From NCBI GenBank assembly GCA_964486045.1, contig CAZALK010000014.1:89244-153243 (forward strand): 64,000 nucleotides of DNA, in the 5' to 3' direction. A program made the translations under genes and the position numbers. Source of the stretch: an uncultured archaeon (lineage in GTDB: Archaea; Asgardarchaeota; Lokiarchaeia; Sigyniarchaeales; SOKP01). The notes under the pieces are model-generated. The model did no database searches. It saw only the letters and a list, made by a program, of their open reading frames with translations, and had not been told where the DNA came from. Position 1 is the first letter of the stretch. Every line of letters starts with the position of its first letter. This document shows, piece by piece, positions 3,555 through 29,943 of this stretch.

Positions 3555-5522
3555 ATAAATTACTTATCATTTTTTCCCTACGATCAATTTAGAAGAGAAC
3601 AAGAAAAAATTATAAAACAGATTGAAATAGATTCAAAATCAAGAAAAAATATTCTGTTAGCAGCCCCCAATGGTTCGGGAAAAACAATAATTGCATTGAG
3701 TGGACTACTTTCTTTAGCATATGAGAAAGATCTAAAAATTATTTATATGTGTAGAACACACTCTCAGAATAGAAGAGTTATCAGAGAATTAATCAAAATA
3801 TCAGAAAAATTAGAGAAAAACCATCTTGGAATAAAATTAAATGGGCTTTCCATAAGAGGGAGGAACGAGATGTGCCTAAATGAAACTTTATTAGACTTAA
3901 AATTAAATCCTAAAGAGTCGATGTCAGTTTGTAAAGATTTAAGACAAAATAGGAACTGTTCTCACTTCTTAAATTTGTTAAAAAAAAAGGGAAAAGTAGA
4001 GAACCCTACGTTAATGGCCCCGGAATTATTCAACAAGCCCATTGATGCTGAGGAACTTATAGAGTTTTGCAAGAGTGACAAATTGTGCCCTTATTTTTTA
4101 TGTAAATTCTTACTAAAAGAAATGAAAGTCATTATCTGTAATTATCAATGGATTTTCAACCCCCACATTCGGGAACTTTTCTTACAATTTGTGGATCAAG
4201 GATTAGACAATTGTATTTTAGTTCTCGATGAATGTCATAATATAATCGATGTAGCAACAGATGTAAATTCTAATAGAATAACACCATATTCATTGAGATT
4301 ATGTTTAAAGGACTTAGAAATGTATAGATCACCACGAGTAATGCAAAGATTTGTAAGAACTTTATTGGATCACTTTGATGAGAAAAAAAGTAGTCTAAAC
4401 TACGGGGAACAAGCATTGGACCCAATTAACTATTTAAAAATCCTTTTTAAAAAACTTAATCTCAAAGATTTGAATGAATTTAAGAATATAATTGAAGAAT
4501 TGCATGAATTCAGTATTTCGGTTCACAATGAGAAAAATTCTGATGGTAAAATTTCAAGGGATTACTTAGGTTCTTTTTCCGAGTTTTGGTTAAAATGGCT
4601 AAAAACATACAACCTTGAAAATTATTTTTTCTGTTTTACAGTTAAACAAGTTAAGCGAAAGAGATCAATTTCTTTAGAGATCGTGGCTTTAGATCCAAGA
4701 GAAATTGTTATTCCAATCTTAAAATCTGTTTTTACTTCCTTAAACTTATCTGGAACAGTAAATCCTTATGTCTATACTAATTTAATGGGATTAAATGAGA
4801 GTGGTAAAAGTTACAATGAAATAATAGCACAATCACCTTTCCAAAAGAAAAATATTAAGGCGATGATTATTGAGGGAGTGGATACTAAAAGAGATAATAG
4901 AACACCTGAAATGTTTGAGAAAATGATTTCTAAAATAAATGAAGTTTTAATGTGTACTCCTGCAAATGTGGGTATATTTTGTGCCTCCTACCAAATACTT
5001 AAAGGTCTTATTTCGAATGGAATAGAGAAGATTGTAGAAAAGAACAATAAGAGTTTTTTTAACGAATCACCTGGATTATCTGCTTCAGAAAACAATACAA
5101 TGGTGGATCAATTTAAAACAATGTCCTCGAATGGTGGGGCTGTATTACTTGGTGTATGTGGGGGAAGAAATTCAGAAGGCGAGGATTATCCAGGGAATTA
5201 CATGAACTCTGTTGTTATAGCTGGTATTCCTTATCATTTACCTACTCCGAGAGTTAATGCCAAAATTAAATATTACGATAAAGTATTTAGACGTCAAGGT
5301 TGGAATTTTGCCTACTTATACCCAGCGATTCAGAGAGCAAACCAAGCCTCTGGTCGACCAATAAGAAAAATATCTGATAAAGGAGCAATAATATTTCTGG
5401 ATAGTCGTTTTAAAGCCAAAAACAAATGGATTTCAGAATGGATAAGAGAAGAACTAGAAATTATTCCAGATAAACCTAATGCATTAATTCAGACTTTAAA
5501 ACCTTTTTGGAAGGGTAACTAG
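3555..5522 (+). CDS. xpd: XPD/Rad3/DinG-family Fe-S DNA helicase; probable non-AUG start (ATA 3555 or ATC 3552)
   Basis: Frame is open from 3534 and encodes FPYDQFRREQ and Walker A APNGSGKT upstream of the first TTG (3696); Fe-S cysteines, DECH, SEGEDY, QASGRPIR. Confidence 0.88.
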   Translation: MNYLSFFPYDQFRREQEKIIKQIEIDSKSRKNILLAAPNGSGKTIIALSGLLSLAYEKDLKIIYMCRTHSQNRRVIRELIKISEKLEKNHLGIKLNGLSIRGRNEMCLNETLLDLKLNPKESMSVCKDLRQNRNCSHFLNLLKKKGKVENPTLMAPELFNKPIDAEELIEFCKSDKLCPYFLCKFLLKEMKVIICNYQWIFNPHIRELFLQFVDQGLDNCILVLDECHNIIDVATDVNSNRITPYSLRLCLKDLEMYRSPRVMQRFVRTLLDHFDEKKSSLNYGEQALDPINYLKILFKKLNLKDLNEFKNIIEELHEFSISVHNEKNSDGKISRDYLGSFSEFWLKWLKTYNLENYFFCFTVKQVKRKRSISLEIVALDPREIVIPILKSVFTSLNLSGTVNPYVYTNLMGLNESGKSYNEIIAQSPFQKKNIKAMIIEGVDTKRDNRTPEMFEKMISKINEVLMCTPANVGIFCASYQILKGLISNGIEKIVEKNNKSFFNESPGLSASENNTMVDQFKTMSSNGGAVLLGVCGGRNSEGEDYPGNYMNSVVIAGIPYHLPTPRVNAKIKYYDKVFRRQGWNFAYLYPAIQRANQASGRPIRKISDKGAIIFLDSRFKAKNKWISEWIREELEIIPDKPNALIQTLKPFWKGN

Positions 5523-27784: not shown

Positions 27785-29149
27785 GTGGATATGATTTTTG
27801 ATATAGTTCTAAAAATTTACAATAAATATTACATCTGTGTCCATTGTCTTGGTAGGATGTTTTCTCTGTTAGGATCTCACACAACAAACCAAGAAAGGGG
27901 AAATTCTTTATTACTTTCATTAACTATGGAAAATCATAAAATTTTTCTGTCGAATAATAAGGAACAGCGTGAAATTGCACTAGTTAATCTAAAAATATTA
28001 GCTGAAAAAGCAAATTACTTACCGGCTAAAAGAGTTTTATCAAATGAAGGGTTGAAATATGTTACACTAAACTCAAGTCGAACATGTTATTTATGTCAAA
28101 ATATTTTCTTAAAAATCAAAACTTATGGAGAAAAAGCCATAACTGCCCTTGAAGGGATTGAATTTTGTAATTTTTTAGTAGGATCTACTCCAGACTCTCA
28201 AATTATAAATCGAGAGGATGATTTTAAAGCTAATTTTAAGTTATTAGAAGCAGAATCTTTTAAAAGTCATTTCAATAGAGATATTGGGAAATATCTCTCA
28301 GAGAGACTTAATAAACCTCCAGATTTTAGCAAGCCAGATATATCCATAGTTTTTTTTGTTAACTATGAATCATCTTCTCTTAAATTAAACTTAAAATCTC
28401 TTTTTATATATGGAAGGTATAATAAGTTTATACGAGGAATTCCTCAAACCCATTGGTTATGCAAAAATTGTATGGGAAGGGGATGTATAAAATGTGATTT
28501 TTCAGGAAAACAATATCTAACAAGCGTGGAGGAAATAATATCTCCAATTTTCGTTAAAGAATCAAAAGCTACTGATTCTAAGTTTCATGGTGCTGGTCGA
28601 GAAGATATTGACGTGAGGATGTTAGGTACAGGAAGACCCTTTATTATTGAATTGAGAAATCCACAAATCCGAACGTTAATTCTCACTAAAATAGAGAAAA
28701 AAGTGAATAAAGTTAATAAAAAGAAAGTTAGAATTCGAAATTTAAGAATTAGCAATAAGCAAGAAGTTGTCCACATGAAAAGTGAGGCTTCAAACAACAA
28801 AAAAGTTTATAAAGCATTAGTTAAAACTAGAGAGAAAATCCCTAAACGGATCTTTGAAGAGAAAATAAGAGTATTAAAGCTCGCGCTTGAAAATAATAAA
28901 ATTAATCAAAGAACACCCCTAAGGGTTTCTCACCGGCGTGCTGATAAAATTAGAAAGAAGATTATTTATAAAATAGGGGGGAAATTTGTTAAATCTAATT
29001 TATTTGAGTTTACTATTGAAACCCAAGGTGGAACTTACGTAAAAGAACTAATAAATGGGGATACTGGTCGTACATCTCCTTCCTTTTCAGACTTGTTTGA
29101 AGTACCTTTAGTTTGTAAAGAATTAGACGTATTAGAAATCTCATCTTAA
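27785..29149 (+). CDS. pus10: tRNA pseudouridine(54/55) synthase Pus10
   Basis: CVHCLGR, GRYNK..RGIPQT, FHGAGREDIDVRMLG.GRPF, QRTP.RV.HRRAD, GGTYVKE. Confidence 0.95.
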   Translation: MDMIFDIVLKIYNKYYICVHCLGRMFSLLGSHTTNQERGNSLLLSLTMENHKIFLSNNKEQREIALVNLKILAEKANYLPAKRVLSNEGLKYVTLNSSRTCYLCQNIFLKIKTYGEKAITALEGIEFCNFLVGSTPDSQIINREDDFKANFKLLEAESFKSHFNRDIGKYLSERLNKPPDFSKPDISIVFFVNYESSSLKLNLKSLFIYGRYNKFIRGIPQTHWLCKNCMGRGCIKCDFSGKQYLTSVEEIISPIFVKESKATDSKFHGAGREDIDVRMLGTGRPFIIELRNPQIRTLILTKIEKKVNKVNKKKVRIRNLRISNKQEVVHMKSEASNNKKVYKALVKTREKIPKRIFEEKIRVLKLALENNKINQRTPLRVSHRRADKIRKKIIYKIGGKFVKSNLFEFTIETQGGTYVKELINGDTGRTSPSFSDLFEVPLVCKELDVLEISS

Positions 29150-29243
29150 AATGAATGAAGGTAATTTATACATCTAAAATCAAAAAATAAATAAATTATT
29201 ATTCATATATCAACTCAATATAAATTTTTAAAGGTGTTCTGTT

Positions 29244-29549
29244 ATAACAAATCATAAAGGTTATAGAAATAAGACTCGGAAACTCTATCGGAAGAAAGTA
29301 AGAAAGAGAGGGCTCGGATCGATTGAAAAATATTTAATTGATTACAACATCCAAGACAAAGTCGATATTATTGGAGATCCATCTATCCATAAACGTGGAC
29401 TCCCCCACCGAAGACACTACGGAAAAACTGGCACGATTATAGGGCAAAGAGGTCGCTGCTTCTTAGTTGAGGTTAAGTTAGGAAATGCCATAAAAACCTT
29501 GATAGTTGGTAGAGAACACTTGAGAATAAATTCTGCATCTGTTAAATAA
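29244..29549 (+). CDS. rpl21e: 50S ribosomal protein L21e (eL21), ATA start; absent from the ORF track
   Basis: (M)TNHKGYRNKTRKLYRK...DPSIHKRGLPHRRHYGKTG...REHLR; canonical position between pus10 and rpo4; in-frame TAA at 29229; AGGTG SD at 29232. Confidence 0.93.
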   Translation: MTNHKGYRNKTRKLYRKKVRKRGLGSIEKYLIDYNIQDKVDIIGDPSIHKRGLPHRRHYGKTGTIIGQRGRCFLVEVKLGNAIKTLIVGREHLRINSASVK

Positions 29550-29577
29550 TTAGTTATTAAAATAGGTAGGAATTAAT

Positions 29578-29943
29578 ATGTCTGGTCGTAAAAAAGATGA
29601 GAGAATAGTTTCTATTCCAGAAGTTAAAGAAATTATGAATTATGTAAAAGAACAAATGGAAGAAATCGATACTGAGGAAGGTATGTCACACTTTCAAGAA
29701 ATAACTTATAATTATGTGAACAAGTTTGCTAAAATGGATTTTAAAACCTCAAAGAAAGTTAAAGATTTTCTTATTAAAAAGTATGATATTGAAGAACTTT
29801 ATACCATTAATATTATAAACATTAATCCTCAGACTGTTATGGAATTGCGAGTTATTCTTGAGAAATCTTTTACTGGAAAAACTTTTACAGAAAAACAATT
29901 AGAAGTAATTTTGGAAGAATTAGAAGATATTAAAACCTCTTAA
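29578..29943 (+). CDS. rpo4: RNA polymerase subunit Rpo4 (F)
   Basis: VSIPEVKEI, YVNKF, NINPQTVMELRVIL; conserved synteny. Confidence 0.88.
   Translation: MSGRKKDERIVSIPEVKEIMNYVKEQMEEIDTEEGMSHFQEITYNYVNKFAKMDFKTSKKVKDFLIKKYDIEELYTINIININPQTVMELRVILEKSFTGKTFTEKQLEVILEELEDIKTS

Follow-up and report, generated by a model that had tools for sequence, protein, structure and literature searches.

A probable AUA initiation codon for the ribosomal protein eL21 gene of a lokiarchaeon and the recurrence of candidate AUA, AUU and AUC starts in its genome

In this study, we examined how translation of the gene for ribosomal protein eL21 (rpl21e) begins in a 64 000-nt stretch of DNA (hereafter called the window) from an uncultured lokiarchaeon of the order Sigyniarchaeales. 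Taken together, the sequence around the gene and the comparison with its orthologues make it very probable that eL21 is initiated at an AUA codon that is selected with the guidance of a Shine–Dalgarno (SD) site. The AUA start is not special to eL21, as the same type of start, that is AUA, AUU or AUC (AUH) behind an SD site, recurs in dozens of unrelated genes of this organism. The features on which these statements are based are collected in Table 1.

Table 1. Features of the window, with positions counted from its first nucleotide, and Pfam-checked candidates for AUH starts
Feature	Position	Strand	Remarks
In-frame TAA closing the frame 5′ of eL21	29229–29231	+	No ATG, GTG or TTG from this TAA to the conserved eL21 sequence
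Shine–Dalgarno site AGGTG	29232–29236	+	Pairs with CACCU of the 16S rRNA 3′ end, GGATCACCTCCT; spacing 7 nt
Putative ATA (AUA) initiation codon of eL21	29244–29246	+	Sole near-cognate codon at SD spacing; orthologue comparison
eL21 (rpl21e) coding sequence	29244–29549	+	101 codons plus TAA; Pfam, PDB, single copy, dN/dS
rpoF/Rpb4, downstream gene	29578–29943	+	ATG start; Pfam RNA_pol_Rpb4
Conserved upstream block AAAATCAAAAAATAAATAAATTATTATTCATA	29176–29207	+	32 nt, in the Pus10–eL21 spacer
XPD/Rad3-type helicase	3555–5522	+	ATA start, GGTG 7 nt before; Pfam DEAD_2, HBB, Helicase_C_2
Reverse-transcriptase-domain ORF, 523 codons	52896–54467	+	Possible ATT start, GGTG 8 nt before; RVT_1 at residues 137–270
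Actin candidate			Profile position 5 at residue 11; next canonical start at codon 48
CdhC candidate			Profile position 1 at residue 6; next canonical start at codon 23
MinD/CbiA P-loop protein candidate			Profile position 2 at residue 3; next canonical start at codon 19
Ras-like GTPase candidate			Profile position 1 at residue 2; next canonical start at codon 40
Two ETF-alpha proteins			N terminus of the domain lost from the next canonical start
FolE2, DegT, JAB protein, HIT protein, helicase, radical-SAM zinc ribbon			Further Pfam-checked AUH candidates

The eL21 gene and its start site

The stop-to-stop frame 29232–29549 (+) encodes a full-length eL21 protein (Pfam PF01157, Ribosomal_L21e; score 95.9 bits, cut-off 27, E=1.4e-27). 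Positions 2–97 of the 101 positions of the profile align with residues 6–98 of this frame, which places the protein in PF01157 above the gathering cut-off and with nearly full-length coverage of the profile. Archaeal eL21 chains in the PDB also match the protein, with E values down to 1.1e-20, and in the alignments with the 160-aa eukaryotic eL21 chains (for example 22tu_LT and 4v6w_CT) residue 1 of the chain falls on the ATA codon, which is residue 5 of the query. On its 5′ side the gene is separated by an A/T-rich spacer of 94 nt from the Pus10 gene, which ends at 29149, and on its 3′ side it is followed by the genes for Rpb4/RpoF, a DUF655 protein and KsgA (Pfam RNA_pol_Rpb4, DUF655 and RrnaAD). 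The succession of eL21, rpoF/Rpb4, DUF655 and KsgA is the customary archaeal gene order.

A search of the whole 5.18-Mb genome to which the window belongs (G000; 45 contigs, 99% complete) returned this gene as the single eL21 match and revealed no second copy. When compared with the two nearest species, eL21 has a dN/dS of 0.08–0.09 at a dS of about 1, indicative of strong purifying selection; the ratio is limited to these two species, synonymous sites being saturated in comparisons with more distant ones. The intact frame, the low dN/dS and the presence of a sole copy indicate that the gene is functional and is not a decaying copy. This agrees with the initial annotation, in which it had been argued that a core gene in its usual synteny is unlikely to be dead and in which an intact second rpl21e, with this copy silent, had been named as a finding that would speak against an unusual start.

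Following the in-frame TAA at 29229–29231, the sequence reads AGG TGT TCT GTT ATA (29244–29246) ACA AAT CAT AAA GGT. The stop is thus located four codons 5′ of the ATA, and the first in-frame ATG, GTG or TTG is encountered 85 codons after it, from where a stub of only 16 codons would be made. The 3′ end of the genome's own 16S rRNA is ...GGATCACCTCCT, the CACCU of which is complementary to AGGTG, and the 7 nt between AGGTG and ATA are the modal spacing among the canonical GGTG-led ORF starts of the same genome. The earlier reading of this site had been that no canonical start codon precedes the conserved region, that the ATA lies 7 nt behind an AGGTG SD site and that it coincides with the N terminus of eL21, and it holds in all three respects. 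The Pfam match begins one residue after the position to which residue 1 of the eukaryotic chains aligns. Within the window, the motif AGGTG-N7-ATH is found 12 times as opposed to an expected 5.5, a count that is reached in 2 of 100 shuffles. As this is only about twofold over the shuffles, the case for the AUA start rests on context and comparison and not on the motif count.

It could be argued that translation starts elsewhere, be it at the near-cognate codon AGG at 29232, at an upstream start from which the eL21 frame is reached by splicing, readthrough or a frameshift, or, on a leaderless transcript, right at its 5′ end. AGG is indeed one base away from AUG. However, this AGG is part of the SD site and does not have an SD site of its own. 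In the 94-nt spacer, no canonical start in frame with eL21 follows a TAA at 29175, and an ATG at 29151 meets that TAA after eight codons. Furthermore, the Pfam and PDB alignments begin at the ATA or one residue later, and the constant distance of 6–8 nt between SD site and start codon that is seen in 46 species (see below) is what would be expected for SD-led and not for leaderless initiation. We consider a start at any of these other sites to be exceedingly unlikely and take the AUA at 29244 as the probable start of eL21.

Start codons of eL21 orthologues

A comparison of the start codons of rpl21e orthologues had been proposed as a check in the initial annotation, and it was carried out here on 129 eL21 loci, 122 from the family to which the window belongs (its own genome included) and seven from the sister family f2. 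The codon homologous to the ATA is ATG in 38 loci, TTG in 35, ATA in 26, ATT in 11, ATC in 8, GTG in 7 and CTG in 4, and no other codon is found at this position in any of the 129 loci. ATA, ATT, ATC and CTG are also among the possible starts of translation table 11, so that all seven codons are start codons of that table. Leucine and valine codons at this position are only TTG, CTG and GTG; TTA, CTT, GTT and GTA dominate in a genome with a GC content of 31%, yet they never occur here. The restriction of leucine and valine to start-capable triplets despite the low GC content is the signature of an initiation codon. All codons at this position are methionine, leucine, isoleucine or valine codons, and a site for a hydrophobic residue could mimic part of this pattern, but not the absence of the other leucine and valine codons.

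Among the 51 species of the window's genus, ATA is present in 19, ATT in 8, ATC in 8, CTG in 4, TTG in 7 and ATG in 5; these counts come from related species, and their independence is therefore overstated. Orthologues in sister genera and in family f2 use ATG, TTG or GTG at the homologous position. In three other families of the order, ten further eL21 loci carry ATG or TTG, and in one ambiguous locus an ATT is accompanied by a TTG three codons before it. In the gene tree (128 rows), at least 40 changes of the start codon are required, at least 14 of which are between weak (ATA, ATT, ATC or CTG) and canonical codons.

The three nearest species carry ATT, ATC and ATA at the homologous codon in independent assemblies, which speaks against a base-call error. 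This bears on the explanation that an ATG was misread as ATA through faulty sequencing or assembly, or that the gene is a decaying pseudogene. Such an explanation could draw on the fact that the genome is a 45-contig assembly and that the sole eL21 gene of a close relative (genome G022, locus L003; 79% identical, with an ATA start) is interrupted by an in-frame TAA at codon 19, which is AAA in the window. However, in addition to the codons of the three nearest species, it is opposed by the eL21 ORF of the window itself, which is intact, full-length, under purifying selection and without a second copy in a 99% complete genome, and we attach hardly any weight to it. The TAA at codon 19 in G022 could be an assembly error, a sign of a pseudogene or a case of readthrough. 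Two other genomes have unusual eL21 matches: on one short contig (C302) of genome G060 there are two adjacent eL21-like matches (locus L091), and in genome G090 a second eL21 with 45% identity is located on a separate contig (C39), which may be a contamination or a divergent paralogue.

There are 49 orthologues with a weak codon, and in 35 of these the stretch from the upstream stop to the weak codon is free of in-frame canonical codons. In the other 14, an in-frame GTG or TTG in the vicinity offers a possible alternative start; for nine of these the sole nearby alternative is a GTG within the GGTG motif, and for three it is a TTG two to three codons upstream, and it is exactly these three that have no SD site before the ATH codon. 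A GGTG is found 6–8 nt upstream in 46 of the 49 weak-codon cases (at 7 nt in 36 of them) compared with 23 of the 80 cases with ATG, GTG or TTG. In independent contrasts, the weak codon goes with GGTG by 5.3 to 0.1 (median P=0.06), although with eight well-supported contrasts this test is underpowered. The claim of the initial annotation that eL21 must start at AUA is supported by the single copy of the gene, the purifying selection acting on it and the start-capable codon at the homologous position in all 129 loci.

With an AUA start and no canonical codon downstream, eL21 will be missed or truncated by Prodigal-type gene finders, and eL21 is a standard marker in phylogenomics and in estimates of genome completeness. 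Public annotations of the gene are mixed. The NCBI proteins P0041 and P0063, which are eL21 from two relatives, begin exactly at the homologous ATC and CTG, respectively, and the public pipeline thus already accepts such codons for eL21. The start chosen for the NCBI eL21 protein P0056 is an ATA located two codons upstream of the homologous codon, and the JGI calls in close relatives either begin at the GTG inside the SD site or lack 18 residues (P0016, P0018). In a collection of 5.8 billion clusters, no protein with more than 87% identity to the eL21 of the window was found.

Candidate AUH starts in other genes and AUH starts in other organisms

The genome was scanned for GGTG-led codons at the head of ORFs of 100 codons or more, with an in-frame stop no more than 20 codons upstream, no canonical start between this stop and the codon, and none in the next 10 codons. 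With GGTG at a distance of 7 nt, ATA was found 17 times, ATT 16 times and ATC 6 times genome-wide, and every other non-canonical codon at most four times, while 39 canonical starts passed the equal filter at this distance. At 8 nt, the counts were 9 for ATT, 6 for ATA and 5 for ATC. At a control spacing of 10 nt they were 0 for ATA, 3 for ATT and 1 for ATC, and at a control spacing of 13 nt ATA was again found 0 times. Approximately 66 diverse GGTG-led ORFs of the genome are able to start only at ATA, ATT or ATC. Twenty of the candidates were checked with Pfam, and in 12 of them a start at the next canonical codon would remove the N terminus of a recognized domain (Table 1).

Two further candidates are located in the window. 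The XPD/Rad3-type helicase has no canonical start, the next ATG, GTG or TTG being 47 codons in. Its N-terminal DEAD/ResIII match begins at residues 12–14, and its Walker A region precedes that codon. The ORF with a reverse transcriptase domain may likewise begin at an AUH codon; 91 codons separate this codon from the next canonical start, but the RVT_1 domain lies downstream, so that it does not discriminate between the two starts. The annotation problem described above for eL21 is equally that of dozens of other genes, including those for actin, CdhC and helicases.

In bacteria, AUU, AUA and AUC can serve as starts behind SD sites, as in infC and pcnB of Escherichia coli, and in Mycoplasma gallisepticum AUU and AUC starts are frequent (PMC5499595, PMC4705826). 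Given a good context, AUA can be about as efficient as AUG in E. coli extracts (PMC5499595). The situation in eL21 is similar to that of infC and pcnB in that a near-cognate AUH codon at normal SD spacing starts an essential gene. It differs in that the host is an archaeon with eukaryote-type aIF1 and aIF2 instead of IF3, and in that AUH codons are common here, making up about half of the filtered GGTG-N7 starts.

With regard to archaea, a review of translation names only AUG, GUG and UUG as starts and does not mention AUA, AUU or AUC (PMC7531240). Compared with canonical SD-led initiation in archaea, eL21 has the same pairing between SD and anti-SD sequences and the same spacing, and it is the start codon AUA that is different. 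In a paper from 2026, a 'rare ATT start codon' has been reported for the tubulin gene AtubA in a metagenome-assembled genome of the Kariarchaeaceae (Heimdallarchaeia) (PMC13394414). As in the case of eL21, the deposited AtubA protein was too short, and an upstream ATT near a ribosome-binding site restored the conserved N terminus; however, this is a methods remark on a single gene from another Asgard class, made without a comparative or genome-wide test (PMC13394414). In a Ribo-seq study on Haloferax, near-cognate sites were set aside (PMC7261190). Apart from the AtubA and Haloferax mentions, no systematic description of AUA or AUU starts in archaea, Asgard archaea included, was found in the literature that we searched. 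Lineage-wide AUH starts behind strong SD sites are a variant of a known bacterial phenomenon, for which we did not find an archaeal description.

Initiation mechanism, regulation and the upstream region

According to the mechanism that we propose, the AGGTG of a leadered eL21 mRNA would pair with the 3′ end of the 16S rRNA and thereby bring the AUA codon (29244) into the P site, where the ordinary initiator Met-tRNA(CAU) would read it with a tolerated mismatch at the third base, and the protein would begin with (M)TNHKGYR.... Throughout this lokiarchaeial family, a strong SD site at 6–8 nt would make AUA, AUU and AUC, and rarely CUG, regular start codons of many genes, and the third base of the eL21 start would be almost free to drift. 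We have high confidence in this account as a whole, in which the AUA is placed by the SD site and reflects a habit of the lineage rather than a device of eL21.

The simplest reading is that Met-tRNAi would decode the AUA and that methionine would be the first residue. A conventional gene for the initiator tRNA-Met(CAU) is located on contig C1 of G000 (583602–583726, +). The tRNA has the A1:U72 pair and an anticodon stem with three G:C pairs, and an intron of about 47 nt interrupts the gene behind the anticodon loop. In its unspliced form this gene is missed by ARAGORN and by the Rfam tRNA model. Only 25–31 tRNAs were obtained genome-wide in these scans, because tRNA genes carry introns and are under-called. 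A search of the genome for an initiator-like tRNA with an anticodon other than CAU returned only an odd site, GGGCTGATAACCC, on contig C17 (C17:21292, +; locus L161), and as neither ARAGORN nor Rfam recognizes it as a tRNA, this candidate was dropped. The site resembles an anticodon arm with three G:C pairs and the anticodon GAU and is located directly 3′ of a T-arm-like sequence, GCGGGTTCGAGCCGC; it may be a piece of a permuted or split tRNA, or it may be due to chance.

Archaeal aIF1 and aIF2 are homologues of the eukaryotic proteins that proofread the start codon. An Asgard lineage that routinely accepts AUH codons behind SD sites would be a natural system for studying how the stringency of start codon selection is set. 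In vitro, aIF1 of Sulfolobus solfataricus rejects AUU (PMC4705826), and AUH initiation would hence require relaxed proofreading in the lineage studied here. Our tentative suggestion, for which we see somewhat less than an even chance, is that proofreading is relaxed throughout the family, to the extent that, behind a strong SD site, changes at the third base of AUN are almost neutral and AUA, AUU and AUC are ordinary starts in about half of the strongly SD-led genes, including those for core ribosomal proteins such as eL21. If this is true, the relaxed third base of AUN would be a state of translation initiation that is undescribed for archaea.

A different view would be that selection maintains the weak AUA start because it controls the dosage of eL21 in particular, much as the AUU start does for bacterial infC; the initial annotation had mentioned that the start might also serve autoregulation. 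This view could be supported by the weak codons in 39 of the 51 species of the genus and by a long eL21-specific block upstream of the gene that is conserved across the family. However, the same start type is present in the other AUH-led genes of the genome, 12 of the 51 species have ATG or TTG, most other genera have ATG, TTG or GTG, and the codon has switched repeatedly between weak and canonical forms on the eL21 tree. Moreover, the share of ATG among the ATN codons in the genus is 5 of 40 (12.5%) compared with 11% G at the four-fold degenerate third positions in long ORFs of the window's genome, and ATG is therefore neither avoided, as would be expected from infC, nor clearly preferred. 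The strict retention of a non-canonical start with avoidance of AUG, which marks the autoregulation of infC, is not seen for eL21 in this genus.

The leader itself does not look like a regulatory structure either, since the region of the leader and the start (29195–29300) folds less stably than shuffled sequences (z=+1.77). In an Rfam scan of positions 28800–29800, no leader match was obtained, and the only hit, to CRISPR-DR47, is below threshold, lies inside the coding sequence and is regarded as chance. We know of no role of eL21, a protein of the large subunit, in start codon choice. For these reasons the idea of autoregulation through the AUA start is not supported, and we regard a gene-specific dosage control as improbable. 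The eL21 data favour drift of the start codon under a strong SD site over a regulatory weak start, and they temper the regulatory reading of weak starts, although with small counts from related species this is suggestive only.

The conserved block in the Pus10–eL21 spacer, AAAATCAAAAAATAAATAAATTATTATTCATA, precedes eL21 in all but two of the 51 species of the genus (49 species) and is shared by most genera across the family, but it is absent in family f2. Within the 5.18-Mb genome, its core has a single intergenic occurrence, and the sole other match to a loose form of the pattern gives no sign of a second copy. Judged from its sequence, with a BRE/TATA-like A/T run, the block is probably a promoter or an operator of an eL21–rpoF operon. 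The window lacks a conserved sequence, TTCTACTAAATCAATTGATT with the palindrome AATCAATTGATT, that follows this block in many species of the genus.
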